Notes under the pieces: generated by a model | The model's input: only the letters and a program-made list of their open reading frames with translations | Databases searched by the model: none | What the model was told of the DNA's origin: nothing | Part shown: piece after piece, positions 1-50,444 of the stretch | Layout of the letters: every line of letters starts with the position of its first letter | Position numbering within the stretch: position 1 is the stretch's first letter | Translations under genes and position numbers: made by a program | Source of the DNA: a virus | DNA: 64,000 nt | IMG/VR virus record: IMGVR_UViG_3300030329_006605 | Location: 1-64,000 of that record | Direction: 5' to 3' (one strand)

Positions 1-3000
1 ATCTTTAACATCAAATCCTTCATCGCCAGCAGTTGCAATCATTTTTGATCTAAGCTCTCCAACTTCTAAAAATGCGCCCTTGATGTCGCCCACCTCTCCG
101 GCAATTCGATTGATATTGTGCACGTGTGCTTGAAATTGTTTTATAGCCTGCTGTTGGTTTTCTAGACTAAAGCTTCTAGCTTTGTCGAATTGCCCCTGCG
201 CTATCCCGCGCATTGGTTCATATTGGTTCCCCACAATCTTCTTTATAGCATCCAAAATCCCAACCATCTGTCTTGTATTACCGGCAGTTTCCTCAAGGGG
301 TGTGTCTCTCATTATCTGCTTCATTGCCGCTTCGTAAACCTTTGGATCATCTGCCGCTCTTTCCATTTCTTCTGCTGCAGCAATCATTTGAGACCTCTTG
401 GCTGGGTCCATCTCTGAGGTAGCACGGCTTCTCATTGTGTCTGCTGCGTTTAAAGTGTGTTGTTTGAGTAGGCCCGCGTATTCTCCAATCGCCATATCAC
501 GCATAGCCTCCGCGGCTCCACCACCGTCAGGAGATTGACCGGTAATTTTTTCCCAAGATTTTAAAAGCATCAGAGCTCCTCTGCCTTGTTCTGCGCCGGT
601 CGGTCCTGTGGTAAATTTATCAAGGCCTAATGTAAATTTTTCTATGAGTGGGTCCATGGACTTTGGATCCAAGAAAGCGTTTATTCCGCCCATTCTATCT
701 AATTCTCTTTTATCTTGACGAACTAATTGGGCGTGTAATTTTTGTTGTATTAATTCTCTAAGCTGATGAACGTTATCCATATGCAGAGTACTCAATATTT
801 CTGTAATTTTATCTGTTTGCTCGTCGATACCAGATTTAAGAGTTTCGGTCTTCATGAAGGTCTCTTTATTTGCGTCAACAATTTGTTTTAATTTATCAGC
901 CACGTCAGTTATGCTTCCGGCACCGCCCTCTTGCGCAGTCTTTTGTAGCATAGCTACTTCTTCACCTATTGCTAGCACCGCCTTCAATTTCTTTTCTGCT
1001 TGGAAGGTCGCCGCTTTATTTCTTTCAGACCCGCCCGCACTTCTTTTTTCTTCTGCGCCAGCTTTGATTCTGGATATTTGATCAAACACTTTATCAAACA
1101 TTCCTGATTGAGCTTTTCTCATTTCGTCTCCGAGTTTAACACCCGAGTCTTCCATTATTTGGCTAAGTTTAACATCATATTCTAATTGCGCTGTTGTTTC
1201 TTCGCCCATGAATGGTGCCATTCTTTTTATTTCTAACTCCATTCTGGATCGTTCTAAATTTCTACCCATTCTGGAATCTAATCCAAGTCCCGTTCCATCT
1301 TTGCCCATTCTATCGTCGATCTGTTTTTTGAACTCAGCCCTACGCCCCATAGCCTTTAAGAATTGGAAATAAGCTTCCTTCGCGTCATTTAATACATCAA
1401 TGGAGTCTTTATGAGCTTTTGTTAATTGTTCTGCTTTTATTCTTTCTTGATCGCGGACCTCCCTTAAAGCTTCTAGTGTATTTTTAGAGTTTTGCATTTG
1501 AGCGGATATTTCTACAATGGCATCAAAATATGTCTGCAAGCCTGTTGCGTCTACGTCACCTTGTTCAACGCCCCTGCGCTGTCCCTCAATTATTAACTTC
1601 ATTTGGTCCGTTTGGTTTGGTATAGATTCCAAAGCGGACACAATATCACTTGCCGACGCGCCTTGTAGCTCCGGTGCACGGTCAGCCATAAACTGTAATT
1701 GTTCTGAGTCAAGAGATTTTGAAAAAGCCTTTGCGTCACTACGCGCATCCATTCTTCCCTTGATTGTCTCTGTATTGTAGACTTTATCGTTCATTCCCAA
1801 GATGCCTTCCGTAAAGAAGTCATGCCAGTCGTCAACCGCGTCAACAGCTTCAGCTAATGATGCAGCAAGAGATATCTGTTGTAATTTTTGACCTTCTTCG
1901 TAAAGGGCTTTTGCGATGAGTTCTTGCTGCTTGGTGGTGTCGTTAACGGCCATTAATTGCGCTCGGTATTGATCCGGAACATCTGCAAGAGTTTCAGCCA
2001 TTTCCCTTTCCAACCTTACGATTGTTTCTGCGTGAGAATTTACATCTGCATATGCCGCCGCTAATTTTTGTGAAACTTGAGTAAACTTTTGTGTGCTATC
2101 GGAAAGTTTGGTAAATTTCTCTTTCGTTTTTTCCATTTCTTCTTTGAGCGCTGGACCGGCATCATTTAAAGAATTATATAGGGATCCCACCACGCCCGTT
2201 ATTCCAACGAAGGCGCCCGCAGCCACTCCTATCGGACCCGGAATCATCATCATTGCTGTTCCAGCCATAGAAGCGGCTTCCGACATACCGCTTAAAGCGG
2301 TTTTTGTTTTTTTCATTTCTTCCGGAAGCATGCCGCCCGCTATATTCATAGCCATGCCTCCACCCATACCAGCAACCATGCCTTTTTTCTTAATGTTGTC
2401 GGTTCTTTCTGCGCGAGCTCTCGCGGCGGCTTCTTTATCAGAGGTGTCCCTTAACTCACTTTCCCACGCTGACCTCGATTTTGTCTCCCCCTCTATTGTT
2501 ATTTGTTGTTCGGGGGCAATAACTTTCCCACTATCATCCATAGAATACCCCTCGGCTTCGAATCTAGCAACCTCGCTTGTGAATTCGTTTTTTAGCTCCT
2601 CCTTGGCTATTTTGCTTGCGGCGGCTTTGCCCTCCCTCGTGGTTCGTTCTCCACGCATAAAATGATCCTTACCTTTATCATCTGTTATTGTCCTTCCGCT
2701 AGCGATAATTTCATCTGTTTTTGCTTTAAGGATATCACCCTTAGGCTGATATCTTGAAGGGTCTTTGCCTACTTCCATTTTTAAAGCTTTATATTTTTGT
2801 TCTGCTCCCGCCGCTGATTGACCGGCCCCCTCAAGCTCTCTCTGCAAAAGACCTAATCTGCCTCCTAGCCTTTCTATCTCTTTTAAAACTGGATTAATAA
2901 CTGGTTCTATCTCGCCCATCTGACCGGAATAAGCTAGCATTCCCAATCCCATCGGCCCCATTAAATCACCTAAACCAAATCCTTCTTCCGCAAAATTAGG

Positions 3001-6000
3001 AACAAATCCACTTGCAGCATACCTTTCTTTGCCAGAGCCGGTTTTACCTAGATTAACCCGGTCTGCTTTTTGCCCTCGATCTATGTGATCTTTCTTGATG
3101 ATTTTATCAGCGCTATAGCCATGTTCACGAGCTTGACTTCTATTAACTACCACCTCTTGTCCTAGTCTATTAGATGTCAAAGCTATCGCGCTACCAGCCA
3201 AAGCTTTTTCTCGCTGCATTGATTCAATCATCGGGTTAAAGTTCGGAACAAAACCGCCATACTTTTGCCGTTTTATTGCGTGACGCCTCATGTCTGGGCG
3301 CACTTCTTCAACCTGAGATAAAAATTCGTCTTGATCAGTTGGGAGTTGTAAAGATCCGACAACAGAACCCCAACTTCTAGTAAATAAATCAGAAGGAGTA
3401 TCAAGCCTACCAATTCTTTGTTTCATAATTTGCTCAGGGCCACCCTCCGCCTCTAACGCTATAAGTCTGTTTGATTTTTCGACCGTTTGTTTAGTAAGTT
3501 CGTTATTTAAATTGTCAGAAGCTTGAACAACTACAATTTTATCAGAATCAATAATGTCCTGCTCAGATTGAATAGGAGTACCCTTACCACCTTCTTTTAT
3601 TCCAGCAAAAGTTGATTTACCTACGCCCGAAGGCCCCATTACCGTCGTTATAGGCTTACCAGAATTTAGGGCAAATCTAACTAACTCATCATAGGCCAGT
3701 CTTGACCCCTTGCCCTTTTGTTTAAAAGTGTCCCAATCAAGAACTCCTCTAGCGGCAAAGTTCGGAACAAAACCGGAAGCGTAATCTCCAGCTTGCGAAT
3801 ATTTTGCTATTTTTTGACCCCTCCGTAAGTCTGCGTCAGTCTCTGCTCCACCCAGAGGGATTTCTGTGTCCAAATCTTCAGAAACTCCAAGCACCTGAAG
3901 GCCCAGATTTATGCTATCTTTAAAATTTGCATCGCCCTCTTTAAATTGTGAATCCGCATTGGCCACACTTCTAGCAAGAATGTCTCTAGAATGTTTTCCT
4001 ATGGTTGCTTTAAACCATTCGTCTATAGAATTTACTCCCCCCACTTCCTTTGAAACCATTTCTTTATTTTTAGCTTCACCAGATGTTACCAATTCTTCAG
4101 GGTTGAGCCCAGAAGATTGACCAAGAGCAGCGCTCCTTGTATGACCTTCAGGATAAACAATATCAGCAGAATAACTATCGCTCGTTAAACCACTCTTAGC
4201 CGTTGCTTGTCCTTTTAAAGTTGTTCTTCTCGCAGCTTTATCAACGCCTTCTATCAGGTGCTTGTTTTCGTCAAGCGTATCCATTATGTATTCATCTGCA
4301 CCAGTTCTAAAACCCCCAGTCTCTTCGGCCATTATATCTTCTAAAATATCAGCTTTTGCTTTTAATCCAGCAGCCTTTTGGGCGTCAACTATTTTTCTTG
4401 CTTTGTTAAACTCTTCTTCGAATTGCTTAGCTCTTAAGTGGGGTGCAACATATCCTTTATCTCCTTCGGGTTTGAATGCATCCGGATGAATAGTGTCTAA
4501 ATACGCTTGGGCGGCTTCTTCCGTGGTGTATTTCTCTTTACCTTCTCCTAGAACCGGGTCAGCAATTCTCTGCCAAGAAGCTCCACCCCTGCTGCCCACG
4601 ATTTTTTCCTCCCCCATTTTTTCGTTAACACCACCAAAAGCTTTAATAAGTGTTTCACTTTGAATTTGATCGTCAGATTCGATAGGTCCGGCGCCAAATG
4701 GCCATTCTCTTCCCGCACTCTTTGGGCCTAATTGAGATATACCAATAACTTTATCCATTTTTATCTGACCAGCGGCGTAAGCTTTTTGATCTGGCGTATT
4801 GATAATACTTGGATTTAATCCCGCAAGCCTAGCCTGAATACCCATTGGTCTCATATTGTTTAAATAAAAACCGACCTCTTTTGGAGAAGGAACAGGTAAT
4901 CCAGCACGCTTGTATCTTTCTGTTCGGGTTGCTCTCTCTAATCTGTCTTTAGATTGACCTCCTCCCCCCGGGGTCAAAGCAGAACTTAAAATTTCATTAT
5001 TTGTATTTGTTAGAATCTTCTCCAAATCAGAAGCTGACCCACTTTTGGTTGCGTGTAGGGCTACTAAATCAGATACAGAAGAACTAAAGCTATAACGATA
5101 CCCGCTGTCGGGATCGCCACCAAGAAAATCGTACTCCAAGAAGTTGGGAACATGACCGACTGCTCCATGTATACCCCCTATTCTTTTTACTTCTTGTTCG
5201 GTTCTTGGAGAATGATGCTGCCATCCTCCTGCTGCAAGTTTTGGGAGCTCTTGGTCGGGACCAAGCCAATTTTGCGCATCAAAATAGATTGCTTTTTCCA
5301 TTGCAAGATCTATAAGTCTGGTAACTGCCTCTTGCCCCCCTCTGCCCGCGGCAGCCTGCATAGCAAACCACCTCCGAGTCTTTTCTTGATTCATTAGGCG
5401 TTTCGTGCCGTGTTTGGTTTCTCTTAAACCGCTCGACGCCTCACTTCTACGAGTAAGTTCCCCTGCTGTACCGGGGCTACCGTCTGCGGATCCAATCTCT
5501 GGAGCGGAACCAACCTCTTCATCACCGGGTGTTAATTCTAACATGGCTCCGCGATGCTCTGCCCATCTTTGCGCAATTTCCTCGCTTCTACTTAGCGAAG
5601 CAACTCCAGCGGGAGATACCGATTTGGAGCTTTGCTCAGCTAGCCACGCTTCAAAAGATCTCAGTGATTCTTCAGTAGTATTCCCTTGGCCGGCCTGTTT
5701 TTCTTTACCCGTGACAGGACCATAAGACATGTCTGGCCTGCCCGCTTTACCGTATTGATATTCTCCTTCACTATAACCCCTAAAGAGATCTAAGAAATTC
5801 GGAACATAACCCGTGCTTTTTTTGCCACCAAAAAGTGAAGAAATTTTTCCTTCCGCCCATTCTCCCCAAGTTTGCCCCGCGTCAGATGGAGGAGTTGATG
5901 GGTCGTCTTGTGTTGGTGAAGATAATTTTTCCTTGACCCATTGCTTGGCCGCTTTTACTCCAAAGAAATCTTGCTCTTCTGCATCGCGTTGGTCGTGCTG

Positions 6001-9000
6001 TAACTGAAAGATTTCGGATTCATTTTTTGTCCCTTTGTGCGGTGCGGTGGGGTCAACTAGGGTGTCTTCAGCTATTAATCTGTCAATTTCCTTCTTGCGA
6101 GTATTTTGGAAGAAATCGGTGCTCTCTATTATAGTTTCTAATATACCGTGGTTGTAATCCTGACCCGGGAACTTTCGCCCGGCGAATGGTGGCTCGCTTT
6201 TTGTTTGCCCGAAAGGTACGTCGGGGTCGTACATCATTCCTTTTATAATTGTGTATGGTACTCCAACGAACTGCGCTGCTTTTTGAAGCTTTTCAAGCCA
6301 TGGGCTTGGTGTCCCTGCTTGAGAATGAAACGGAATTTGTTGAGGAACCAAATCAAGTAAGGTCTGTTGGGTTTGAGGATCGAGGAGAGGATCGAGAAAA
6401 AAGTTTGGAATATAACCCATGCTTTTCATTTGGGCTAAGTTTTCTGGTTTAGCTAAATTTAAAATTCTTTCTATATCATCTACGGTTTCAATATTGTCGA
6501 AGCCTTCATCTAAAGTGGGAGCTTCAAATCGATTATACATTCCCTCAATAGCCGCTTCTGGAATAGTTTTACTTCCCCCTTTTTCTTTTATTATTTCCGC
6601 TCTTCTTGCGGTTATAGCTTTTATAGCAGACTTGACATCCTCTTGTTTTCTGGGGTCAAGATTAGATATATCCCCAAATACTACCGCTTCTTTTTCGTAG
6701 TCTTTAATTGTATCTTGATCGAACATTTCTAAGGACATTTTTCTTTCCCTAGCGCTCATGTTAGTCATATCAACCGAAATGTCTTTTCCAGATTTACTCG
6801 CTTCAGAAACTCTTGCGTCAAATCTTTTTTGAATTTCTCCCCGAGCCTCTAAAACATTACTCCAAACTAATTCCGGTATCCAAGGTTGATCTTCAGCGAG
6901 CTTTGGATCAAAATCAGGATTTACCATAGCTGTTCCTAATTTCGGATGAATCGCCCCAACCTTAACTTCTTCTCCGGGTATTTCGAATGTATCGTCATAA
7001 CTCATACCCATATCCGCGACAACTTCATTTACTACATCATCTCTACTTATAATAAAATCATCTGGGGCATTTTTCTGCAACCAAGTTGATTTGCCTACGC
7101 CCGGCGCACCCACGAGTGTTCTTAATTTTTTTGCAAAATTCGGCACATAACCAGAAGCCTTCGAGTCGCGTCCAAACATTTTTCTAGCTTTGTCTGGGAT
7201 ACTTCCTAAATCGTCAAGATCGGTGGAGAGAATGTCTCCCGCTCCTTCAGCCAATCTTTCTAACCATTTGGGGTCTTTAACTTTATCATCAATACTGAGG
7301 GGGTCGAAACCATCCTCACTAAACATAGAACGTAACCCCGCGTATCCCGCTGAGGCTGCCATTGCGCCCGTGGTCACAAGCTGCCCTGCTTCAGCCAATA
7401 TAGCGGGGTCAATGAAATTCGGCACGTGACCAGCAAACCTTTTTGAGCCGCCGGGATTTGCTCCTCTATTTGCGTGCTTACTTTCAAAAGATTGAACTCC
7501 GGTAATTTCTGGTATACCAAGTTTATTTATTTCTTCAATATTTTCTGCAGCATCGTCCCCGAGATTGAAGCGCGGGGTTACCCCGCCTTTATCTTGAGCT
7601 TTTCTGTGCATTCTTGCTAGAACTAAAGCTTTCTTTTGCGCCGAATTTAAATGTTTCCATCTTCTACTACCCTTACCTTTTGGCCATCCTTTCTCATCTA
7701 AACTTTCGTATTGATCATCAAGCCTACCACCCGGCGCAAAATCACTAGGTCTAACTACGCCCACTTCGAGACCCGTGCTGGGATCGATCTGGGCAAAATC
7801 ATATCCTTGTTCTATTTTTATGTCATTGAACAAATCTCCAGTAGTTATTACGCCTTTGAGGTTTACGTTTTTATTTAATAGATTTTCTTCAATTGTCGGC
7901 TTTGACTTTCTACCTCTCGCTGTAAGAATTTCTACCCTACGTTGCGAATCTACCATCTCTTGCCCAACACCCACTTGTGTTGTTGGAGCATCAGTGTCTT
8001 CGGGTGAGCCAGTTAAAATACCCTGCTTGGCAGACCAAGCTTGAGCAAGCTGAAAACCCTTTACATTCGCTGGGTAAGTTACTGTATGCTCGTCATAATC
8101 ATCAAATTGAACCAACTCGTCATCTGATAGTTCGCTAGGTCTTATAAAATTGGGAACATACCCCGTTGCATAGTGTGGTTTCGTACCGAACCCAAAAGTT
8201 CCAGCTTCATCCAAAGCTCCTCTTTGTTGTTCCAATCTATCCCACTCAGGCTGAGGAGGCCCGTCTGGATAAACTGCATTAACCATGCCCGCCGCAATCC
8301 CCCGAAGTATTTCTCCGTTTTGATCTGGATCTTCTTCAAACCAACCGTACAAGGATTTAGCCATAGCATCGCCGCTAGCACCCCCGCCCTTCATAATTTT
8401 CTCCACTTCAGGAGGTAAAACATCTGCGGCTGCGGGTGAGTTCGATAACCTTTGAATTAAGTGTATTGATTTTTTAACATCTCCTTCATTAGATGCGGGC
8501 AACAAGCCTTCAAAATCTCCAGCCGGATCAGATTTAGCATGACTAAGTCTATCTTCTCCGCTTCCCGCCCCCCAGATAGCATCTGTTCCAAAAATCTTTT
8601 CGGCGGCCTTAAGTCTGTTCGCTTCTATAGTCTCAGCAATAACTCTCTCTTCATCTCCACGCTCTTTATCTACGCCTTTTATAGCTCCAGCTAGTTCATG
8701 TCCAAGCGCAACGCCAGCATGTGCGCCTTTTACTCCAGTAAAAGATAATGTTTCCGCTTCGCCTTTTACTTTATTACCCTTTTCGTTGAAAGCCCTTGGG
8801 TTTGCGAATTCGATTTGTAAATTATTTATTGCATCTTCGTAATTATTAAAAGCTTGACCTTCGTAAGTAAAATTTGTTGCCGCTTTAAATCTTTCTAGTT
8901 CTATAAGATGTTTGCTTTGTTCTTGTAATACTAATAATTTTTTATGTGCTTGTGGGTCTGTGATAGCTGGAGCTTTTATTTCTATTCCTGAGTCTGGTAG

Positions 9001-11559
9001 ATCTTCTGGAAAAAGAGCTTTGAATTCTGGCTTAATACCCTGTCCCATTATATCTACTCCCTCTGCACCCTTTTGCCCCCTTGTCTGTGGGTAAGTCATA
9101 GCCTGCAAGAAACCTTCCCAAGCATGACCCCTTACTTGTCCATGAGCATTTTCGGGCAAAGATTGAGGATCATAAGAATCCCTCATTGTTTCCCAATCCG
9201 GATGTTTTCCAAGGGCGTCTCCCGCGACATTATGCAGTAGGCCTCTCCAATTATTATCTAAAGAATGATCAAATCTTTTTCTAAAGCTGTCTGGCATTCC
9301 TCTGTTTTCGTCCCCAGAACTACCGATTGGTCCACCTTCTTCGGGTGTGATTCTTTCTTTAAGGTCTCTATTAAAAGTACCCGGCTCAACACCCGCACCC
9401 TTTTCCATTTCGCTTTGAATCAATCCGAAGCGAGCCGCATGAGGTCTATCAAGTAAAGCCCCGCCCACTCTTTCTTTTTGTGTTCCCAACTCCATTACAG
9501 GTAGCCGTGCTTTCCCAAGCCCCATATTAGCGCCGGGAATCTCATCGTCCAATAGCCTTTGAGGCCCGCTTATACTGGCGAAGTTAGGAACAAAGCCGTC
9601 GCTTTTTTTGAATTCTCTTTGTCTGGCTTCTGTAATTTTGTCTGCCAACTCATCCCTTTTTTGTCTTCCCACTGCGCCGTACCTAGGAATGACAGTCCAC
9701 TCCCCACCCTTGGGCGTCACGCCAAATTTTTTCTGCATTTGTTGTGGGCTATAAACATCTTCAGCATCATTAGCTAGAATGCCTGTATGCCCTTCTATTT
9801 TCGCTTGAGGATGCCATTGAGACTGAACGCTTTTTGGTGCGCCTAAAGCTTTAGCCATGGTTTCTTCTGAATTGCCAGCAGAGAAATTAGGAACATAGCC
9901 AGTTGCCGCGGTTTTTCCTGCGGGCATCATCTGCCCCTCAAAAACTTTCCCTGCTGCTGTATCACCTTTACCTACGGTGACCCCGGAAGCCGCAAGATTC
10001 TTTGCGATCGTCTCAGAGGTTTTTGCCATTCTAATCATGTGGTCAGATTCTTTTTGAATCATACCTAAAATTTTTGCATGCAGATCTTTCTCAGTAATTA
10101 AACCTTGGTTTAGTTTATTCAATTCTTCTGGGTTCTTCTGCAGGTAATTAAAAATCTGCCCTTGAATGTTGGCAGCTTCTCTAGAGCCTTGATTGAACCC
10201 TGTGATTCCTCCTAGAGCGTCCGCACTAAATCTAGTAAGTTTGTCGAACAGCTTCATTATACCCAACGTCAAAACCGCAATACCGGGCCCCTTGAGAAGA
10301 TTACCTATACCCTCTAACACTCCCGTAGCTAGCTTTTGACCGATCCCTTTGCCATCCATATCATCGCCGACGCCTTCAAGAGCTTCGTTTAAACCTCCCA
10401 AAGTTCTCTTTAGTGCTGGCCCCAAAGTTAAATTGCCAACAGCCGAACCAGCTTTCACAAGATTATTGAGCGTTTGAATCAATTGCGCGCTGATTGTTTT
10501 GTTTAATTGTTGATTTCTTTTCTCTGCTTCGTCCGTGGCTGAAGAAGCGATATTTAATGCGTTCGCATATAAGCTATGCTCTTTACTTAAATCTCCCAAG
10601 GCGGCTTTCAAAACGTTAACTTGGAAAACGCCACCAACCATCTCAGCGACCATGGCTCTTTGTCTTTTTTCTAAACCGTCATACTCCTTAGCTAGATTTC
10701 CTAATACCCCCATCAAGCTAAGGCTTGCTCCATTCGCGTCTTCCGTCGTAACACCTATAGCTTCTAAGGCGTCAATAACCCTAGGTCTTTGCATTCTTGT
10801 AAAGATAGTTTTGAATGCGTTACCAATAACCGCACCACCTCTAGCGGTTGTTTGTTGTGTTGCAGCGACAATACTTAACAACTCGTTCAAAGATACTCCT
10901 GCGTCAGAAGCAGAACTACCTACACGCTTTATGGCTTCAGCTAGGTCGGCAGAACTAACAGCAAAAGCCGCATCAACCGCGGCCATCTTATTTACGATTT
11001 CATTAGACTTTAAAGCTTCTTTCGTGAAGCCGTTCATCGCAGCAGTTAATGCCATTACAGAAGATGCTGCGTCTAGTCCAGATATACGTGTTAAAATTAA
11101 AGCGTCATTTGTTCTCTTTAAAGTTTCTTCTATCCCCAAGCCTTGTCTTGCTAATTCGTTTGCAGCTTCAGCTACAACAGAAAAAGCTTGACCAGTTCTA
11201 TTCGCTATTTCGAATAATTGATTTCCGAATCTTTCTAAAGAAGCACCACTTACCCCCAAGATTGTATTAATTTCCGTAAGAGATTTTTCAACGTCATGCG
11301 CTGCTTGAACCATTCCCCGAAGAGCCATTGAAACTGCGCCGATTGCTGCAACCGATGCACCGAACGCAATAACACGAGCATTAGAAGCTTCTAGGGATTT
11401 TTCGAATTCACCGAGTTGACCTTTAATTCTGCCGAGGGGTTGAGAGAACCGTTTGGCATCCAGAGGACCGAGATTATATCTAGCGTTTAACGCTTTTTTA
11501 ATCTCTCTGCTTAAGAGCGTGGTATCGCCCGATACGGTTAATCTAATATCAGATGGCAT
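1..11559 (-). CDS. Giant tail tape measure protein (>=3853 aa, 3' end outside window) with an internal array of enzymatic cargo modules
   Basis: ATG at 11559, with an in-frame stop upstream at 11590-11592. No stop in the ~7 kb translated by hand, and the ORF is absent from the track as expected if it stays open to base 1. N-terminus (MPSDIRLTVSGD...EKSLTEINTILG...LARQGLGIEETLKRTNDALILTR...AAVDAAFAVSSADLAEAIKRVG...TTARGGAVIGNAFKTIFTR) is a TP901-type TMP core. Gly/Ala/Met-rich hydrophobic segment at ~2180-2400. Lies downstream of the tail tube and chaperone-position genes. Confidence 0.93.
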   Translation of the reverse strand, partial: MPSDIRLTVSGDTTLLSREIKKALNARYNLGPLDAKRFSQPLGRIKGQLGEFEKSLEASNARVIAFGASVAAIGAVSMALRGMVQAAHDVEKSLTEINTILGVSGASLERFGNQLFEIANRTGQAFSVVAEAANELARQGLGIEETLKRTNDALILTRISGLDAASSVMALTAAMNGFTKEALKSNEIVNKMAAVDAAFAVSSADLAEAIKRVGSSASDAGVSLNELLSIVAATQQTTARGGAVIGNAFKTIFTRMQRPRVIDALEAIGVTTEDANGASLSLMGVLGNLAKEYDGLEKRQRAMVAEMVGGVFQVNVLKAALGDLSKEHSLYANALNIASSATDEAEKRNQQLNKTISAQLIQTLNNLVKAGSAVGNLTLGPALKRTLGGLNEALEGVGDDMDGKGIGQKLATGVLEGIGNLLKGPGIAVLTLGIMKLFDKLTRFSADALGGITGFNQGSREAANIQGQIFNYLQKNPEELNKLNQGLITEKDLHAKILGMIQKESDHMIRMAKTSETIAKNLAASGVTVGKGDTAAGKVFEGQMMPAGKTAATGYVPNFSAGNSEETMAKALGAPKSVQSQWHPQAKIEGHTGILANDAEDVYSPQQMQKKFGVTPKGGEWTVIPRYGAVGRQKRDELADKITEARQREFKKSDGFVPNFASISGPQRLLDDEIPGANMGLGKARLPVMELGTQKERVGGALLDRPHAARFGLIQSEMEKGAGVEPGTFNRDLKERITPEEGGPIGSSGDENRGMPDSFRKRFDHSLDNNWRGLLHNVAGDALGKHPDWETMRDSYDPQSLPENAHGQVRGHAWEGFLQAMTYPQTRGQKGAEGVDIMGQGIKPEFKALFPEDLPDSGIEIKAPAITDPQAHKKLLVLQEQSKHLIELERFKAATNFTYEGQAFNNYEDAINNLQIEFANPRAFNEKGNKVKGEAETLSFTGVKGAHAGVALGHELAGAIKGVDKERGDEERVIAETIEANRLKAAEKIFGTDAIWGAGSGEDRLSHAKSDPAGDFEGLLPASNEGDVKKSIHLIQRLSNSPAAADVLPPEVEKIMKGGGASGDAMAKSLYGWFEEDPDQNGEILRGIAAGMVNAVYPDGPPQPEWDRLEQQRGALDEAGTFGFGTKPHYATGYVPNFIRPSELSDDELVQFDDYDEHTVTYPANVKGFQLAQAWSAKQGILTGSPEDTDAPTTQVGVGQEMVDSQRRVEILTARGRKSKPTIEENLLNKNVNLKGVITTGDLFNDIKIEQGYDFAQIDPSTGLEVGVVRPSDFAPGGRLDDQYESLDEKGWPKGKGSRRWKHLNSAQKKALVLARMHRKAQDKGGVTPRFNLGDDAAENIEEINKLGIPEITGVQSFESKHANRGANPGGSKRFAGHVPNFIDPAILAEAGQLVTTGAMAASAGYAGLRSMFSEDGFDPLSIDDKVKDPKWLERLAEGAGDILSTDLDDLGSIPDKARKMFGRDSKASGYVPNFAKKLRTLVGAPGVGKSTWLQKNAPDDFIISRDDVVNEVVADMGMSYDDTFEIPGEEVKVGAIHPKLGTAMVNPDFDPKLAEDQPWIPELVWSNVLEARGEIQKRFDARVSEASKSGKDISVDMTNMSARERKMSLEMFDQDTIKDYEKEAVVFGDISNLDPRKQEDVKSAIKAITARRAEIIKEKGGSKTIPEAAIEGMYNRFEAPTLDEGFDNIETVDDIERILNLAKPENLAQMKSMGYIPNFFLDPLLDPQTQQTLLDLVPQQIPFHSQAGTPSPWLEKLQKAAQFVGVPYTIIKGMMYDPDVPFGQTKSEPPFAGRKFPGQDYNHGILETIIESTDFFQNTRKKEIDRLIAEDTLVDPTAPHKGTKNESEIFQLQHDQRDAEEQDFFGVKAAKQWVKEKLSSPTQDDPSTPPSDAGQTWGEWAEGKISSLFGGKKSTGYVPNFLDLFRGYSEGEYQYGKAGRPDMSYGPVTGKEKQAGQGNTTEESLRSFEAWLAEQSSKSVSPAGVASLSRSEEIAQRWAEHRGAMLELTPGDEEVGSAPEIGSADGSPGTAGELTRRSEASSGLRETKHGTKRLMNQEKTRRWFAMQAAAGRGGQEAVTRLIDLAMEKAIYFDAQNWLGPDQELPKLAAGGWQHHSPRTEQEVKRIGGIHGAVGHVPNFLEYDFLGGDPDSGYRYSFSSSVSDLVALHATKSGSASDLEKILTNTNNEILSSALTPGGGGQSKDRLERATRTERYKRAGLPVPSPKEVGFYLNNMRPMGIQARLAGLNPSIINTPDQKAYAAGQIKMDKVIGISQLGPKSAGREWPFGAGPIESDDQIQSETLIKAFGGVNEKMGEEKIVGSRGGASWQRIADPVLGEGKEKYTTEEAAQAYLDTIHPDAFKPEGDKGYVAPHLRAKQFEEEFNKARKIVDAQKAAGLKAKADILEDIMAEETGGFRTGADEYIMDTLDENKHLIEGVDKAARRTTLKGQATAKSGLTSDSYSADIVYPEGHTRSAALGQSSGLNPEELVTSGEAKNKEMVSKEVGGVNSIDEWFKATIGKHSRDILARSVANADSQFKEGDANFKDSINLGLQVLGVSEDLDTEIPLGGAETDADLRRGQKIAKYSQAGDYASGFVPNFAARGVLDWDTFKQKGKGSRLAYDELVRFALNSGKPITTVMGPSGVGKSTFAGIKEGGKGTPIQSEQDIIDSDKIVVVQASDNLNNELTKQTVEKSNRLIALEAEGGPEQIMKQRIGRLDTPSDLFTRSWGSVVGSLQLPTDQDEFLSQVEEVRPDMRRHAIKRQKYGGFVPNFNPMIESMQREKALAGSAIALTSNRLGQEVVVNRSQAREHGYSADKIIKKDHIDRGQKADRVNLGKTGSGKERYAASGFVPNFAEEGFGLGDLMGPMGLGMLAYSGQMGEIEPVINPVLKEIERLGGRLGLLQRELEGAGQSAAGAEQKYKALKMEVGKDPSRYQPKGDILKAKTDEIIASGRTITDDKGKDHFMRGERTTREGKAAASKIAKEELKNEFTSEVARFEAEGYSMDDSGKVIAPEQQITIEGETKSRSAWESELRDTSDKEAAARARAERTDNIKKKGMVAGMGGGMAMNIAGGMLPEEMKKTKTALSGMSEAASMAGTAMMMIPGPIGVAAGAFVGITGVVGSLYNSLNDAGPALKEEMEKTKEKFTKLSDSTQKFTQVSQKLAAAYADVNSHAETIVRLEREMAETLADVPDQYRAQLMAVNDTTKQQELIAKALYEEGQKLQQISLAASLAEAVDAVDDWHDFFTEGILGMNDKVYNTETIKGRMDARSDAKAFSKSLDSEQLQFMADRAPELQGASASDIVSALESIPNQTDQMKLIIEGQRRGVEQGDVDATGLQTYFDAIVEISAQMQNSKNTLEALREVRDQERIKAEQLTKAHKDSIDVLNDAKEAYFQFLKAMGRRAEFKKQIDDRMGKDGTGLGLDSRMGRNLERSRMELEIKRMAPFMGEETTAQLEYDVKLSQIMEDSGVKLGDEMRKAQSGMFDKVFDQISRIKAGAEEKRSAGGSERNKAATFQAEKKLKAVLAIGEEVAMLQKTAQEGGAGSITDVADKLKQIVDANKETFMKTETLKSGIDEQTDKITEILSTLHMDNVHQLRELIQQKLHAQLVRQDKRELDRMGGINAFLDPKSMDPLIEKFTLGLDKFTTGPTGAEQGRGALMLLKSWEKITGQSPDGGGAAEAMRDMAIGEYAGLLKQHTLNAADTMRSRATSEMDPAKRSQMIAAAEEMERAADDPKVYEAAMKQIMRDTPLEETAGNTRQMVGILDAIKKIVGNQYEPMRGIAQGQFDKARSFSLENQQQAIKQFQAHVHNINRIAGEVGDIKGAFLEVGELRSKMIATAGDEGFDVKD
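3256..3756 (-). other. TMP module 9: small P-loop kinase
   Basis: VMGPSGVGKSTF Walker A, followed later by a lid-like QIMKQRIGR. Confidence 0.75.
5158..5793 (-). other. TMP module 7: putative R-S-E ADP-ribosyltransferase
   Basis: LFRG (R), ASLSRSEEIAQRWA (SxS plus helix) and TEQEV (ExE), in canonical order. Confidence 0.7.
6418..7134 (-). other. TMP module 5: polynucleotide kinase-like (AAA_33) P-loop kinase
   Basis: LVGAPGVGKSTW, IISRDD, ISVDMTN...R and IPEAAIEGMYNRFEAPTLDEGF match the T4 PNK kinase/AAA_33 signatures. Confidence 0.88.
7432..8145 (-). other. TMP module 3: HAD-family phosphatase (PNK 3'-phosphatase-like)
   Basis: Motif I FDDYDEHT, motif II VEILTARG, motif III SAQKKALV, motif IV NLGDDAAENI, in the expected order. 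Confidence 0.75.
8164..9579 (-). other. TMP module 2: putative PD-(D/E)xK nuclease domain
   Basis: RGHAWEGFLQA...GVDIM...GIEIKA gives the E...D...ExK pattern of the restriction-endonuclease fold. Confidence 0.6.
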
Positions 11560-17630: not shown

Positions 17631-18488
17631 TTACACAATATATCCGTTATCTTGCATTTCTTTATAAGTTTGTTCGCACATTTTTTCTAGCTTCTCAACG
17701 GGTTGCCATTCCTTAAAATGGTCTATAATAGGGGTTACGTCCATATCTGTTTCTAAAAAACCTATAAAATAGTTTCTTATTTTATTATCCATAGTTAAAA
17801 CATACTTCACTCCGTCGGGTCTCCCAAATCTATGGCACCACCTTAAAAATGGTAAACACATAGCCTTGTGCCCCGCTTTTCTGTATTTTTCATGGATACA
17901 TCCTTCTTCCGCGCCGAAACCTCTGTATAGCTTATTGAACCCCAGCCAAGCGTCTTTCCTTGATGAAAATACACCCATACCCTGCATTGGTATTTCGAAT
18001 GGGTCTGAGTCAGCGGTAATCCCCTTTTTGTCTGTAGCCCATATCCCCCACATTTGATCTCTCCATATAGGGTCAAAGTGGGTTGATAAATTTTTTAGAT
18101 CGTCATAAACAAGGGGGCCTTGGTATAAATTATTCGTTTCAGGATTCTGTTCGTACATATCCAACAACCTTTTTAAAGCTCCCGTCTCAAACATCACGTG
18201 CCCATCCATACAAACGACATATGGCGCGCTTGCATTTTCGAAAACTTGATTCTTTGAATTTGCTGGCCCAATCGATTCTTTATAAGGTATATACTTGAGA
18301 TTCGGAACCCAATTTTTAAAATCTTGAACCGCTTTTCCATGCGGTCCGTCTGGATTATTATCAATAACCAGAAGCTCTGCTACATCCATTATCTCCGGGT
18401 GGTACATTCTCAAAGACATTATTGAAAAATATACCCCATGGAAATCATCATAAGTAGGCATTCCAATGGTTATCTTGGGTTTGGGCAT
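17631..18488 (-). CDS. Glycosyltransferase family 2
   Basis: ITIGMPTY, LLVIDN, GPANSKN, VVCMDGH and GFGAEEG are GT-A fold motifs. Confidence 0.85.
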   Translation of the reverse strand: MPKPKITIGMPTYDDFHGVYFSIMSLRMYHPEIMDVAELLVIDNNPDGPHGKAVQDFKNWVPNLKYIPYKESIGPANSKNQVFENASAPYVVCMDGHVMFETGALKRLLDMYEQNPETNNLYQGPLVYDDLKNLSTHFDPIWRDQMWGIWATDKKGITADSDPFEIPMQGMGVFSSRKDAWLGFNKLYRGFGAEEGCIHEKYRKAGHKAMCLPFLRWCHRFGRPDGVKYVLTMDNKIRNYFIGFLETDMDVTPIIDHFKEWQPVEKLEKMCEQTYKEMQDNGYIV

Positions 18489-18491: not shown

Positions 18492-19085
18492 TTATGATTG
18501 TTTTTGGCTGTTTATTTTTCCAAGGTTTTTTCTGTATTCGAAAGTGGCTTCTTGGTCTTCTAGCCACATTAGTAAATTATCCTGATCTATAGTATAGCCG
18601 TTTTTAATATATTTTAATAATCTTCTATTGTTGACCCTTGGTCGTCTGTCTCGGATAGAGTTCCTTACTAAGGTTTTGCTTTTTATATGATTTTCGAAAT
18701 CAGAATGACAAACAAATTCCCCTTTATTATCTAAAGCAGCCATTCCTATCGTGAAATCAAATAATTTAATCATTTCTTCTGGGGTTTTTGCATTAGCTAA
18801 AGATTCGTCAGAGTCAGACCAGCAAAGCATGTCGTAGTAATTATCTTTGTATATGTATTTTTCTCCTCGCGGTAAATCTTTAACTTTTTGCGCTCCAGAT
18901 TCTAGTAGTCTTTTTTGGGCCATTTCCCTGTCTTCGTGACTAATAAAGAAGAAGTCGTAATCTTTTAGATTTTTGCCAATAAAAAAATCATTTATTGCGC
19001 CCCCAGCAATCCAAAAATATATATCCAAACCTTCGAAAATTTCAAAGTGCGGCTGCATATGTTTTTTTAAATCATCCGAGTTCAT
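18492..19085 (-). CDS. Nucleotidyltransferase (CCA-adding/poly(A) polymerase head-like)
   Basis: IAGGAIND...KDYDFF (GG..D.D) and FDFTIGMAA (RDFT-like). Confidence 0.75.
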   Translation of the reverse strand: MNSDDLKKHMQPHFEIFEGLDIYFWIAGGAINDFFIGKNLKDYDFFFISHEDREMAQKRLLESGAQKVKDLPRGEKYIYKDNYYDMLCWSDSDESLANAKTPEEMIKLFDFTIGMAALDNKGEFVCHSDFENHIKSKTLVRNSIRDRRPRVNNRRLLKYIKNGYTIDQDNLLMWLEDQEATFEYRKNLGKINSQKQS

Positions 19086-20776
19086 AAGTATTTTAAATAC
19101 CTTTTGTATTCTGAGTGGTTTTCTACCATACTGTTAGTCTCTTCAGAGATTTCACCTAGATCTAAATAAGTTTTGTACCCCTTGCTTTTAGAGGTATTTT
19201 GTTTTTTCGTGGGAACATATATGTGTTGGAAGTTTTCTAGTAAGAACGAGCCAAAATTTTTGTTATTAAATTTTGCAACGTACTGTATGTCATCTACATA
19301 ATCAGGTAAAGCCCATAAACGCTGCGCTCCTTTGCTATCTAGCATACCGCGAATAAAATTATTTAAACTAATATTGTGCGGATTATTCTGTCCAGATATT
19401 CTTATTAACTGTTCTTTCAAAGGTTCTCTCAAAGCTTGAGCGCTTTTATCTTCCTCGCTCCATCTGTCCCACTGACCTTGCGCCCAAAAATATAAAGAGC
19501 ACATTATATCTTTAGGGTTTCTTGTGAACATAAACGTAAACCAGCCATTATCATTAAATTTCTTAACAGATTCCTTAGTCCAATTTATGTGATGATTATG
19601 TGTCAACGCTTCTTCTACGTCTTCTTCAGCTATTTTCAATAACTCTTCTTGCGTCCAATCTCTATTTAAAGCTCTTTTGTTGATGTGGTTAAAATCCCAC
19701 CAAGAATTAAAATGTTTTATATGCGGGAAAACATATTTTCTTATATAATGCTGGGTATAGACTCCAGCAGCTTTTCCAAAATGTACGAATGCTAATTTTT
19801 TATTGCAATTAGGATTGTACTGTTTTCTTATATAGCTATTTATAATTGGACTGTTTTTTGCTTGAGCTAAAGCGTAATCTTTGGTTTGTTTATTTAAAGC
19901 TATTAGGTGTAAATTTCTACCTGCGCTACCTAATTCAGTTATATGCGTATGAACAGATTTGGCTTTAGGTGGTAAATTTTCACCTCTCCAAAATCCTACA
20001 TTATGCTCTTTGCCGAATGTTTGTATTTTATAGTAATCGGATATTCTATTCATGCACTCCTGCTCAAAAAAACTTGAATCAGTTAAATACGAATGCCTCC
20101 AAAATTTTGGAAATCCTTTATTTGCACAAAATAAATATCCAGCATTGTAAAAACCAAACTCAAAGCCCTTATGTTGATTTTCGGTTGGGTAATAATGAGG
20201 TGACAAAACAATTTCCGCAGTAAAGTATTCTTGCAAGTTATCTAAAACTATGATATCTGTATCTAGAAAAAAAGTATTATCGTGGTGCTTTAATGCGAAA
20301 TCCATAACTTCCATCTTTTTTAATATAGAAGGCGCATGATGAATATCGTTGGCTATGCACGGGTGGCCATCGAAAACTTTTTCTTGTATCTGATTTAAGT
20401 CTTCTTTTTCGGCGCTTGTTTTAAACTTAACATTATCGCACACATTCATTTTGTTTAGGAAAACCCTAGTTTCTTTGTCACAAATAACGTAAACAGGCTC
20501 ATCGTGGAAAAGTCTTAGAGTCTTTAATAAAACTTCAGCTTCATCTTTAAGATTACCCGTGGTAACAAAACAAAAGCTTTGTATTTTATGGTATTTTTTA
20601 GGTTCGTGCTTAGGGGGTAAATTTTCTAACCAAAACTTTTTCGGACTATAGTCAAGATTTAATTGGCCTGAAACTGCGTCGTTAAACACGGAAAGGTTTT
20701 TGGGTTCAAATAAGCCTTCCCCTAGGCTACGCAAACCAATTTCTTGGTCGTTATATTTTAGTCTTGGCTTGTCCAT
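19082..20776 (-). CDS. Glycosyltransferase fused to a sulfotransferase-like domain
   Basis: N-part has FLDTDII (DxD), YNAGY and FFEQ. C-part has FVHFGKAAG and FTRNPKDIMCSLY, resembling the 5'-PSB and 3'-PB motifs. Confidence 0.7.
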   Translation of the reverse strand: MDKPRLKYNDQEIGLRSLGEGLFEPKNLSVFNDAVSGQLNLDYSPKKFWLENLPPKHEPKKYHKIQSFCFVTTGNLKDEAEVLLKTLRLFHDEPVYVICDKETRVFLNKMNVCDNVKFKTSAEKEDLNQIQEKVFDGHPCIANDIHHAPSILKKMEVMDFALKHHDNTFFLDTDIIVLDNLQEYFTAEIVLSPHYYPTENQHKGFEFGFYNAGYLFCANKGFPKFWRHSYLTDSSFFEQECMNRISDYYKIQTFGKEHNVGFWRGENLPPKAKSVHTHITELGSAGRNLHLIALNKQTKDYALAQAKNSPIINSYIRKQYNPNCNKKLAFVHFGKAAGVYTQHYIRKYVFPHIKHFNSWWDFNHINKRALNRDWTQEELLKIAEEDVEEALTHNHHINWTKESVKKFNDNGWFTFMFTRNPKDIMCSLYFWAQGQWDRWSEEDKSAQALREPLKEQLIRISGQNNPHNISLNNFIRGMLDSKGAQRLWALPDYVDDIQYVAKFNNKNFGSFLLENFQHIYVPTKKQNTSKSKGYKTYLDLGEISEETNSMVENHSEYKRYLKYL

Positions 20777-20997
20777 GATTCGCCCTTTAGTACCTCAATG
20801 ATTTCTTCGTGATTATACTCTTCTAAACCTACGGCGTCTTGGGTTATGTTAAACACAAAGCCGGGCTGCTCTCCTTCATACTTTAGTAAAAAGCGTTTTC
20901 TATCCAAAGAATAACGTAAGCTTTCTGGGTTCGTTTGTTTTACTTTTGTAAAATCAACGTATTCTAAAAATTCAGATGGTACGATTATATAGTTCAT
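20758..20997 (-). CDS. Hypothetical protein
   Basis: 79-aa ORF overlapping both neighbours. Confidence 0.6.
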   Translation of the reverse strand: MNYIIVPSEFLEYVDFTKVKQTNPESLRYSLDRKRFLLKYEGEQPGFVFNITQDAVGLEEYNHEEIIEVLKGESWTSQD

Positions 20998-21785
20998 GCT
21001 GTGTATGTAGCTCCATAAACTCTATTATTATGCATGTCATGGGATGCTAAAAAGTTTTGTCTAACTTGAGAGTTTTTAAGTTCTGAAGTATGTACATGAA
21101 CATGGCCTAATTTTACACCGTTAGTCGAGTAGTACGGGCTACTATCGTAGCTTCTACCTAGGGTTAAGGCTGAGTTCGCTGCCGTTCTCCCAAGAGAAAA
21201 AGAAGTAGAAAGTGGGGTCTGCCCATCATTCTGTATGGTTCCATTTATGTATACTTTATAGTTACCGCTCCCATCGTGAGTTAACGTAACGTAATGCCAA
21301 GCGCCAGCAGAAATCACATCCGTACCATTATAAGGTGCATAAGTTGCGCTGTTTGAGCTATAAGTAGACGAAAACACCGCCAAATAAATTGTTGATGGGT
21401 AAAATTGAAGACCAACATATTCATTGTCGCTTTCAGAACCTATACAAGAATAATAGTTTCCGTTAGAGGGGGTGTTGATCCATTGAGATACAGTAAATGC
21501 ATTTGCACAATTTATATTAAAAGCTGAACCGCCATAACCAGTAGAAGCTTCACCTAAATAATCATCTGAACCGTCAAAAGAAAAATGATGAGGAGTAGAA
21601 TTTACATGTGATATACTATTATATCTTCGAATATTATTTCCACCACTAACTTGATTATCCCAAGCGTTAGAGTCGCTTCCAATATTTGATGGGTCAAAAT
21701 TACCAATTAAATTACTAGTAATAATACCATCAGATTGTTGGCCTAGGGTTTTGTTCAAACCCGTTTTATGAACATGAATACTCAT
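20994..21785 (-). CDS. LamG/concanavalin A-like lectin domain protein (fibre-associated)
   Basis: FSFDGSDDY, FTVSQWI and WHYVTLTHDG...YKVYING. Confidence 0.85.
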   Translation of the reverse strand: MSIHVHKTGLNKTLGQQSDGIITSNLIGNFDPSNIGSDSNAWDNQVSGGNNIRRYNSISHVNSTPHHFSFDGSDDYLGEASTGYGGSAFNINCANAFTVSQWINTPSNGNYYSCIGSESDNEYVGLQFYPSTIYLAVFSSTYSSNSATYAPYNGTDVISAGAWHYVTLTHDGSGNYKVYINGTIQNDGQTPLSTSFSLGRTAANSALTLGRSYDSSPYYSTNGVKLGHVHVHTSELKNSQVRQNFLASHDMHNNRVYGATYTA

Positions 21786-33529: not shown

Positions 33530-34717
33530 TTAACGTATATCACCAGCTTGTCTAAGTTGTTTTATTTTTAATAGTGGTTTTTCTAACCCTCCAACCATGG
33601 TGAATATATTTAAATTATTTTGGTCACCGCTGTATACGCCGATATGCACAGTGCTGTTAGGCCTTAATATTCTAGATAGCTGAGAGAATGCGCTATCAAG
33701 GTGAGATTGAGGCACATTATCTAAAACGCTGGAGTGACCGATAGCTATAATCCCCGCGCATGATCCACTTGAAAAATCTATGCCATCACATAAAGAATTA
33801 TTTTTAATATTTTCCCTTACGACCCTAGAGATGCAAACTGGATCTTTCCAATCTTTAACAGGAGAAGCGCTTAAGGTTACTAAGCCTGAATTTAATACCT
33901 GCATATAATCTTTAGAATCAAATGAAGAATAACTACTATCCTTAGTTGCTGTTAAATTATATAGATGAAACAAACCTACCAAAGATGAGTTCGCCGCCTC
34001 CCAGAACTTAGAAACAGATAGATTGGGGTATAGTTTAGAAATTTTTTCATTATCAATTAATAAAAGCGTAGAAACTTTACCGGTCCTTGTTAGGTTAGAA
34101 ATGTCTTCTAAAGTCTGAGCAGCATTAGCGTTAACCTTCTTGCCTTCTGAAGCCTTCGGTAAAGCTAAAATAACACCAACCCCAGCGTTTTTGTTCGGGT
34201 TAATCATCTGTTGTAATTCGTGCGCTGTATCGATAAGAGGAAGTAATGCTCCTGCGCCGGTCCCGCCACCAGCAGAAGCACAAATGAATATTTTATCAAA
34301 AGTTTCCCCAAAAGAATATCTAAGAAAATCTAAAACATCATCTTTTCTTTTATTAAACAATGCATTTGATAAGTCTTTATTTTTCCCAACTCCCCCGTCA
34401 CCAAAGCATAGTTTATTTTCTAAATCTAATGTGTTCAAATCCTGCTCGGCGGTATTTATTGCCGCAATCCTATTATATCCAAGCTTTTTAAAAGCATGAG
34501 CTAATCTTCCTCCGGCTTGACCACAACCTACAAAAGAAAATTTAAAAGCTACATCTACATCATCTTCGATTTCCTTGTTGTAGATTTTATCTACCACATT
34601 CTCTTCTTGCGAATCGGGAGGTAAGAGTAAACCCTCTGGCATAGATAAGTCTGCCGATGGTTCTTCCCCATACAATGATTTGATTTGCTCTTCGTTTTCA
34701 TTATTAAGTTCTTCCAT
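33530..34717 (-). CDS. Tubulin/FtsZ-family GTPase
   Basis: VGCGQAGGR, AINTA..DL, signature AGGGTGAG, LLIDNEK and FDSKD. Confidence 0.9.
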   Translation of the reverse strand: MEELNNENEEQIKSLYGEEPSADLSMPEGLLLPPDSQEENVVDKIYNKEIEDDVDVAFKFSFVGCGQAGGRLAHAFKKLGYNRIAAINTAEQDLNTLDLENKLCFGDGGVGKNKDLSNALFNKRKDDVLDFLRYSFGETFDKIFICASAGGGTGAGALLPLIDTAHELQQMINPNKNAGVGVILALPKASEGKKVNANAAQTLEDISNLTRTGKVSTLLLIDNEKISKLYPNLSVSKFWEAANSSLVGLFHLYNLTATKDSSYSSFDSKDYMQVLNSGLVTLSASPVKDWKDPVCISRVVRENIKNNSLCDGIDFSSGSCAGIIAIGHSSVLDNVPQSHLDSAFSQLSRILRPNSTVHIGVYSGDQNNLNIFTMVGGLEKPLLKIKQLRQAGDIR

Positions 34718-40632: not shown

Positions 40633-41252
40633 TAGCTTACCGCCTTAGATGCTTTTAAAAATTTTTTATTTTCTTTCTTGGCTCGCAAGAAATCTTCCTT
40701 GGTTTTTTTCCAGAACACATCACCATAGTCTATATAAATCTCTTCGCCAGCCTCAATATCTCTAATAGATAAAATCATAAAATATGGTTGAGTTGGAACC
40801 GGGTAGCATTGAGCATTATACCCGCTCTTAATCAAATAATTAATTCTTTGCTTATTCTTTTCTAGTATATTGCTTTCTTCATCTACGTTCCAGTAACCAG
40901 ATTGGCGATTATTATAATTATGTTTGTCATTTATGTAACCGCCTAAGCCTATGGGGTTTGTTGATGAAATTGGGTCACAATCTATATAAACGTCTAATTG
41001 GTTATCTCCGTCTTTCACTTTGGCTGCGGGATGCCACAAAGCATATCTTGGCATAGGCTCTTTTGGTGCAGTGCCGTCAATTTTATAAGCGTATTTTTCT
41101 TCTATTTTATCTGCGGTATAAAGATCGCCCTTGTATTCGCACATGGGTATACCTACAGGCAAATGAGCGGTTGCAAACAATCCTAGACCAGCCTTCTTTA
41201 TGTTTGAAGTTTTTATTTCTAAACCCGTTGCTAAATTATCTTGTATGTTCAT
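40632..41252 (-). CDS. SET-domain methyltransferase
   Basis: AGLGLFAT, EYKG, GYIND and RDIEAGEEIYIDYG. Confidence 0.88.
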   Translation of the reverse strand: MNIQDNLATGLEIKTSNIKKAGLGLFATAHLPVGIPMCEYKGDLYTADKIEEKYAYKIDGTAPKEPMPRYALWHPAAKVKDGDNQLDVYIDCDPISSTNPIGLGGYINDKHNYNNRQSGYWNVDEESNILEKNKQRINYLIKSGYNAQCYPVPTQPYFMILSIRDIEAGEEIYIDYGDVFWKKTKEDFLRAKKENKKFLKASKAVS

Positions 41253-47323: not shown

Positions 47324-47327
47324 ATTT

Positions 47328-50443: not shown

Positions 50444-50444
50444 A

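Follow-up and report, generated by a model that had tools for sequence, protein, structure and literature searches.

Enzyme elements within TP901-1-type tape measures are familiar from the muralytic domain of T5 pb2 and the Mt3 motif of mycobacteriophage TM4. Phage T4 packages the ADP-ribosyltransferase Alt, which travels in the head and is injected, and makes Pnkp, a 5'-kinase with a 3'-phosphatase of the haloacid dehalogenase (HAD) type, after infection, when it heals tRNA cut by host nucleases. In Thermus phage P23-45, the N-terminal part of gp96, a tape measure protein (TMP) of 5002 amino acids, is a virion RNA polymerase (PMC10770324). Polyvalent proteins are giant chains of unrelated conflict enzymes, among them ADP-ribosyltransferases, kinases and nucleases, for which injection and processing into separate units have been proposed (PMC5512222), and Sle1-type effectors of actinobacterial contractile injection systems combine a TMP-related platform with an exchangeable functional domain and are loaded in a tail-like particle (PMC13277306). 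We analyzed 64,000 nucleotides of viral DNA, positions 1 to 64,000 of IMG/VR record IMGVR_UViG_3300030329_006605 (the window), in which one gene encodes what is, by its sequence, the TMP of an uncultured large aquatic phage. Ten modules in this protein are fenced by eleven copies of a short motif, G[YFH][VI]PNF. Comparison with relatives leaves us in very little doubt that such cassettes come, go and replace one another whole, each from one motif to the next, with the exchange taking place at the motif.

Cassette exchange at a conserved tape measure motif

Direct evidence for exchange comes from closely related loci. The relatives L073 and L076 are 99.7% identical through residue 981, just past a motif at 971-976, and then carry different modules: three in L073, and a single one of 570 residues in L076. 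L076 and L075 are about 90% identical save for one module between two motifs. At all three junctions in these comparisons (3/3), DNA identity breaks within or at the edge of the 18-nt motif. More distant relatives give the same picture for modules of the protein studied here, numbered M1 to M10 from its N-terminal end. The homologue of M7 in P0124 spans motif to motif at another array position, and homologues of M9 in P0016, P0052, P0054 and P0101 likewise run from motif to motif at other positions, each beginning 1-2 residues past its own motif. Identity to M6 in the independent fragment P0122 is 72% from the motif on, and the sequence immediately upstream of the motif is unrelated. Single-linkage clustering of modules over-merged them through multi-domain segments, and was used only to show differing architectures. 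An earlier note on this DNA, made from the sequence alone, had called the motif a modular junction, and the motif-to-motif homologues and the swap breakpoints in motif DNA uphold that description. Domain boundaries coincide with motifs wherever this could be checked, namely for M5, for structure models of the two end modules, and for the homologues of M7 and M9.

The reading frame begins with an ATG at 11559 and continues for 3853 codons without a stop, as translated from the minus strand, until it runs off base 1 of the window. Because that base is also base 1 of the 94,012-base IMG/VR record, the true protein must be longer than 3853 residues. Its identity as a TMP rests on a match to PF10145, the TP901-family TMP core (E 1.9e-31, 110 bits against a cutoff of 33.2, residues 120-309), on synteny, and on a hydrophobic segment in the C-terminal part. 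The upstream genes are conserved tail-module genes whose order is kept in 61-76 of the 80 related loci covered by our locus comparisons. In the long helical C-terminal part, here called the tape, residues 3060-3131 (window 2167-2382) are hydrophobic and rich in Gly and Met.

All eleven motif copies, within residues 554-2856, match the pattern exactly, and each PNF in the protein belongs to one of them. Composition alone would predict 1.3e-4 copies, and no more than one appeared in any of 20,000 shuffles. Across the 94-kb record all 11 matches lie on the minus strand within the TMP gene; the opposite strand has none, a reversed-pattern control returned zero, and six-frame reading of the record and of the 80 related loci found no motif outside the TMP. 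The copies are spelled with varied codons (four for Gly, four for Pro, both for Asn and both for Phe), and just two of the 11 are identical to each other over 19 nt, so selection acts on the peptide, and there is no long repeat to mislead an assembler. The 12 residues upstream of each motif include many basic residues (K/R, 29/132) and small ones (A/G/S, 47/132), and the 12 residues downstream are enriched in D/E and L. The ten modules are mutually dissimilar, the best pair being M5 and M9 through their P-loops, at a non-significant E of 0.12. The account given in the earlier note, of a tape measure protein with eleven motifs and ten mostly unrelated modules of 76-472 residues across 2992-9900, with basic and small residues before a motif conserved as protein and variable in its codons, is reproduced by these results, and the span and counts agree exactly.

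The family to which this protein belongs is large. Searching with the N-terminal core found 1538 proteins of 2119-6743 residues at E <=0.001, with core identities of 42-66%, and 570 loci in IMG/VR were confirmed. Motif and cysteine counts cover the best 119 of these 1538 relatives (P0003-P0121). The motif is present in 114 of the 119, mostly in 3-5 copies, in a few in 7 to more than 15, with a minimum of one. The consensus derived from 547 PNF sites in this set is [KR][SA]xG[FY][IV]PNF[AS]. Over 519 motif-like sites the Pro is invariant (519/519) and the Asn (509/519) and the final Phe/Tyr (516/519) nearly so; the reversed-sequence control gave zero such sites. Typically, the order is core, motif, small domain of about 80 residues, motif, one cargo module of about 265 residues, motif, small domain of about 72 residues, motif, and C-terminal tape. 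Most relatives carry that one cargo module, against eight here. Across the relatives, module number and identity vary between conserved flanks.

A search of giant proteins with the whole array region returned only the protein itself, a word search for shorter relatives returned none, and a single-protein scan for close loci was also empty. Matches in GTDB genomes fall only on contigs of metagenome-assembled genomes from mixed phyla, so no host can be named. Four relatives have neighbouring genes in common with this phage, including L058, with three modules, and L039, with at least five. In L058 and L039 the neighbouring genes are 82-89% identical, a comparison covering window 18492-20776, and the TMP cores only 45-51%, which marks the TMP as a mosaic hot spot. 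Some full-length relatives have a second motif group far downstream, near the C-terminus: P0003 (for example at residues 4143-5203), P0016, P0025, P0099 and L040. As the protein here is cut by the contig end, further modules may be missing from it.

End modules and cargo

The first and last modules differ from the rest. M1, designated small domain D1, aligns with the first small domain of relatives, and M10, designated D2, is 47-55% identical to the last small module in many of them. The earlier note had described a ten-module effector array; of these modules M2-M9 are variable cargo, and M1 and M10 are instead conserved, fixed ends in most relatives. AlphaFold2 models of D1, from 55 relatives, and of D2, from 58, show an alpha/beta fold and an alpha/beta core, respectively, with predicted local distance difference test (pLDDT) values of 81-91 and 76-88. 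The D1 fold begins at the first residue past NF, and D2 likewise starts right past NF; the motifs themselves are modelled as coil, at pLDDT from below 50 to 66. In these models, then, the motif is a flexible, exposed linker directly preceding each fold. Comparing the D1 and D2 models with PDB folds gave no meaningful match (Foldseek E >=1.2, VIA Z <=2.6). Aligned to each other by hhalign, D1 and D2 have in common only the motif and the helix that follows, so we do not claim them as duplicates.

Among the ten modules, M5 alone gave a significant match in sequence searches of Pfam, PHROGs, NCBIfam and PDB, and it is the sole cargo module with an established family. It matches AAA_33 in Pfam at E 7.8e-9. 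An exhaustive phmmer search with residues 1377-2576 returned stand-alone relatives, and more than 100 such proteins of 200-400 residues align with M5, beginning at the residue that follows NF and stopping about 12 residues short of the next motif; their initiator Met falls 2-4 residues from that starting residue. Eight residues are invariant between M5 and 30 stand-alone relatives: G15, P17, G20, K21, D38, D128, R137 and R184. The module has the Walker A sequence GxxxxGK[ST], the catalytic Asp after strand 2, a Walker-B-like Asp, and conserved Arg residues. A profile of the alignment matches the kinase domains of mammalian PNKP (1.7e-9), Clostridium thermocellum CthPnkp (4.9e-9) and T4 Pnk (2.4e-5). 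M5 is, from this evidence, a whole polynucleotide-kinase-like enzyme inserted between two motifs, with predicted activity. That enzymes start right after NF, as had been proposed for several modules, is proven for M5 only and tentative for M3 and M7.

M3 may be a HAD-type phosphatase. M3 and two relatives keep LTAR and DDA, and the DxDET of the two relatives appears in M3 as DYDEHT; this trio resembles the pattern of HAD enzymes. A language-model search of the Atlas placed M3 nearest viral stand-alone proteins (0.94), with HAD_SAK_1 and T5 dNMPase at 0.89; the M3 profile found nothing significant in Pfam or PDB, the best hits being DUF2608 at E 0.15 and 5'-nucleotidase at E 0.22. M7, with FRG near its start, an S-x-S-like stretch, and EQE near its end, would fit an R-S-E ADP-ribosyltransferase, which we offer as a lead only; its nearest named Atlas clusters are NarE-like (0.87-0.89), and hidden Markov model searches with M7 gave no match. 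In M2, residues 759-875 (window 8935-9285) form a 117-residue subdomain that also occurs in modules of six other TMPs, and the pattern E...D...E-x-K/R is maintained among those TMP modules; we read the subdomain tentatively as nuclease-like. The C-terminal half of M8 matches P0245 as far as P0245's own motif, and the P-loop matches of M9 are weak. The whole is a giant phage polypeptide with ten mutually unrelated modules, of which one is a confirmed kinase, an arrangement of the polyvalent-protein kind. By analogy, a counter-defence role is plausible for a cargo of kinase, HAD-like and ADP-ribosyltransferase-like modules. Coordinates are collected in Table 1.

Table 1. Features of the tape measure gene; a motif is listed by its first residue, and module lengths are the intervals between motifs.
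Feature	Window positions	Strand	Residues	Length (aa)	Remarks
TMP gene	1..11559	-		at least 3853	one open frame; 3' end cut by contig end
N-terminal TP901-type TMP core	9901..11559	-	1-553		PF10145 over residues 120-309
Motif 1 GYVPNF	9883..9900	-	554		
M1 (small domain D1)	9598..9882	-	560-654	95	aligns with first small domain of relatives
Motif 2 GFVPNF	9580..9597	-	655		
M2	8164..9579	-		472	cargo; no Pfam/PHROG match
Motif 3 GYVPNF	8146..8163	-	1133		
M3	7432..8145	-		238	cargo; HAD-phosphatase-like, tentative
Motif 4 GHVPNF	7414..7431	-	1377		
M4	7153..7413	-		87	searches gave no relatives
Motif 5 GYVPNF	7135..7152	-	1470		
M5	6418..7134	-		239	complete polynucleotide-kinase-like P-loop kinase (predicted)
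Motif 6 GYIPNF	6400..6417	-	1715		
M6	5812..6399	-		196	match to fragment P0122
Motif 7 GYVPNF	5794..5811	-	1917		
M7	5158..5793	-		212	ADP-ribosyltransferase-like, lead only
Motif 8 GHVPNF	5140..5157	-	2135		
M8	3775..5139	-		455	no family match
Motif 9 GFVPNF	3757..3774	-	2596		
M9	3256..3756	-		167	P-loop module
Motif 10 GFVPNF	3238..3255	-	2769		
M10 (small domain D2)	3010..3237	-	2775-2850	76	
Motif 11 GFVPNF	2992..3009	-	2851		
C-terminal tape	1..2991	-	2857-3853 and beyond		helical/coiled-coil; homologous to C-terminal parts of relatives

Possible roles of the motif

As the best explanation of the protein as a whole, put forward tentatively, we propose that the short peptide fences separately folding cassettes between the TP901-type core and a C-terminal coiled-coil and membrane tape, with M1 and M10 as fixed ends of the array and eight cargo cassettes between them. 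The cargo would stay on the TMP in the virion and exit the tail with it at infection, so that the host would receive ready-made enzymes ahead of any phage gene expression; the chain would be cut at the motif, in its flexible basic linker, by some protease or by chemistry at the invariant Asn, and the modules thereby freed. The parts of this proposal differ in strength. That cargo is delivered together with the TMP is probable, judging from the identity of the protein as a tape measure and from its lack of cysteine, on which the case for virion packaging and injection depends. The TMP has no Cys in 3853 residues, where about 40 would be expected from the 1.04% Cys of 42 other proteins of the window, and among the 314,331 residues of the 119 relatives there are 15 Cys, with 112 of the 119 lacking any. 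Proteins that have to pass through an oxidising compartment, or to be threaded unfolded, typically lack Cys. This suggests that the cargo goes wherever the tape goes instead of remaining cytoplasmic.

Cleavage at the motif is possible, though we would not lean on it. In its favour, the motif lies in an exposed linker before the folds and its P-N-F is nearly invariant. With the linker directly before each fold, a cut after the motif would leave native-like N-termini, and release would benefit enzymes with different targets. In asparagine peptide lyases, such as the nodavirus and tetravirus coat proteins and the NPTH sites of YscU/FlhB, autocleavage occurs at an invariant Asn via succinimide in a folded catalytic context. 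The Asn is likewise kept in this family, and the motif here is modelled, in contrast to those enzymes, as an unstructured linker. In its fullest form the proposal would make the fence peptide a true processing signal, cut through its Asn or by a protease of the tail or host envelope, and would have a cysteine-less magazine of enzymes injected ahead of the genome, including an RNA-end-healing pair (HAD-type phosphatase and polynucleotide kinase) and an ADP-ribosyltransferase; we consider this complete version rather unlikely.

The earlier note had mentioned a prohead protease and a C39-like peptidase, and neither was confirmed in the scanned open reading frames of at least 100 amino acids. A prohead protease is in any case an unlikely cutter: such proteases also cut head proteins, yet the motif is confined to the TMP in the record and the 80 loci, and no protease gene was recognised. 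A complex prediction pairing the 305-residue upstream neighbour with D1 and two motifs scored 0.00, which weighs neither for nor against binding.

A number of points weigh against the proposal. Exchange of cassettes is observed, whereas cleavage and delivery are steps we infer. No peptidase was found in the TMP, which has no HExxH, no GDSGG, and no peptidase match in Pfam, PHROGs or NCBIfam, and none was recognised in the open reading frames of the window that were scanned; a divergent peptidase may reside in M2, M4, M6 or M8. In no relative is the TMP gene split at a motif. Some homologous edges have decayed motifs (PHF, PTL, PAF, VNF), and the motif is therefore not required at every junction. 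Folded modules of 200-470 residues, on several chains, would hardly fit the lumen of a tail tube, which implies unfolded travel or another location. Tape measures and virion proteins may be poor in Cys as a general rule. Of the ten modules, eight are without confirmed function. Cultured phages were matched only through the kinase module or through Bacillus TMP cores, at about 26% identity, and the lack of a cultured relative in the family means that there is no virion proteomics.

In a different arrangement, the cargo is delivered and the motif stays uncut, serving as a docking or register element or an unfolding hinge, with the enzymes acting while tethered. Candidate docking partners would be the tail assembly chaperone, the tube lumen, or other tape-measure chains. 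The motif is hydrophobic and aromatic, exposed, and unstructured in the monomer models, as is usual for short binding motifs; it is restricted to the TMP, with no peptidase found; and it flanks D1 and D2 in nearly all relatives, including those with a single cargo module. P23-45 gp96, moreover, functions as an RNA polymerase fused to a TMP (PMC10770324). This alternative nevertheless comes without an identified partner, would leave enzymes with differing targets all anchored to the membrane, and draws little from the near-invariance of P-N-F over hundreds of lineages, which fits a catalytic or recognition site equally well, and we judge it somewhat unlikely. In another reading the peptide itself does nothing biochemical: it would be a linker that the protein tolerates, the DNA encoding it would be the joint for in-frame recombination, and it would persist since cassettes joined there yield working proteins. 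Swap breakpoints within the 18-nt motif, the motif-to-motif travel of modules and the decay of some motifs agree with this view. Such varied codons, though, with so few copies identical over 19 nt, make a poor substrate for homologous recombination; six near-invariant residues, despite cores down to about 40% identity, point to selection on the peptide; and D1 and D2, retained by most relatives, are bordered by the motif as well. A peptide with no role beyond its DNA is thus improbable.

That folded domains are hard to accommodate in the tube lumen speaks for a further reading, in which the modules are not delivered at all: they would be trimmed at the motif during tail assembly or act in the producing cell, with only core and tape entering the virion. 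Maturation cleavage of tape measures is known: lambda gpH is shortened to H* in tail assembly, and T5 pb2 is also cleaved. But the cargo sits between core and tape, so that its excision would sever the ruler; zero Cys over 2300 residues of cargo is hard to explain for cytoplasmic domains; and separate genes would be a simpler route to cytoplasmic enzymes. We find this quite improbable. Since the source is a metagenomic contig, the array might also be an artefact of assembly, unrelated fragments having been joined at a repeated sequence. This can practically be set aside, given a frame open for 11.5 kb over all junctions, repeats of only 18-19 nt that are mostly non-identical, the same architecture in hundreds of independent assemblies, and the M6 junction reproduced by the independent fragment P0122.

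If the cargo is indeed delivered, giant tape measures of this family would give phages a general way of having finished counter-defence enzymes inside the host from the very start of infection. Should the processing proposal be true as well, these enzymes would together weaken host defences, tRNA-cutting ones among them, before expression of any phage gene, and the magazine would be quickly reloaded in evolution, because cassettes recombine at the motif's own coding DNA, and reloadable by design. Two questions are raised: how folded enzymes pass in or through a tail tube, and how tail length is set by a protein whose length varies with its cargo. The fence peptide offers a precise, testable handle and, as a rule taken from nature, a guide to mounting foreign proteins on phage tails.

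Neighbouring genes and comparison with known systems

IMG/VR labels the record a provirus, 60% complete; no integrase or host-like genes were seen within the 64-kb window. Among the tail genes is a family-2 glycosyltransferase (17631-18488), and amid tail and neck genes lies a nucleotidyltransferase-like protein (18492-19085, minus strand; phrog_1614, E 3.7e-12) that is 89% identical in L058. A protein of 1461 residues (21788-26173, minus strand) has nine collagen triple-helix stretches, E 1.2e-73, at a local G+C peak of about 0.50, and is followed by a Laminin_G_3 lectin-like protein (20994-21785, minus strand); the two are probably fibres. A tubulin/FtsZ-like gene (33530-34717, minus strand; PF00091 E 1.1e-10, Tubulin_2 5e-9) lies between the portal gene (34721-36739) and head genes. 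Adjoining the large terminase gene (36784-38613), the minus strand of 38613-43358 encodes an ERCC4 nuclease-domain protein, a SET-domain protein, a sigma-70 region-2 protein and PhoH. A sugar-nucleotide cluster (43392-49355, minus strand) comprises a WbqC-like protein, an epimerase of the GDP-mannose-dehydratase type, an FkbM methyltransferase with a glycosyltransferase part, an RmlD-like reductase and a nucleotidyl transferase. The 7 kb from 49400 to 56400 have only short minus-strand open reading frames (40-124 residues), a higher G+C of 0.43-0.48, and no tRNA; this looks like an early-gene block of small proteins.

TP901-1-type TMPs with a single enzyme, including relatives with PF01832 or PF03734, have the same PF10145 core, the same position in the tail module and a hydrophobic segment, and their embedded enzyme acts at entry. 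They carry one cell-wall enzyme and no repeated fence peptide, whereas the protein described here has ten modules, mostly of cytoplasmic type, bounded by the motif and exchanged. T4 Alt and Pnkp provide activities similar to those that M7, M5 and M3 would supply, of which only M5 has an established family here; in T4, unlike here, they are separate gene products. The likeness to P23-45 gp96 lies in a giant TMP carrying a cytoplasmic enzyme, one already at work ahead of phage gene expression (PMC10770324). That protein differs in having one fixed N-terminal enzyme and no cassette array, junction motif or evidence of module exchange, and we saw no sequence relationship between the two.

Polyvalent proteins, in contrast to the family described here, are packaged in the head or transferred by conjugation, and the paper describing them mentions tape measures nowhere and reports no conserved fence peptide (PMC5512222). 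Their processing is proposed to depend on an in-built zincin-like metallopeptidase (PMC5512222); no such peptidase was found here. Sle1-type effectors have a single C-terminal functional domain and are parts of a bacterial nanomachine, not of a phage; no fence motif is reported for them (PMC13277306). The literature searched holds no description of tape measures with a fence motif and exchanged cargo cassettes, in line with the earlier note, which knew of none. Single-enzyme TMPs and head-packaged polyvalent proteins are already known; to judge from that literature, a large and widespread group of tape measures that share one standard junction peptide and exchange their cargo cassettes freely would be new.

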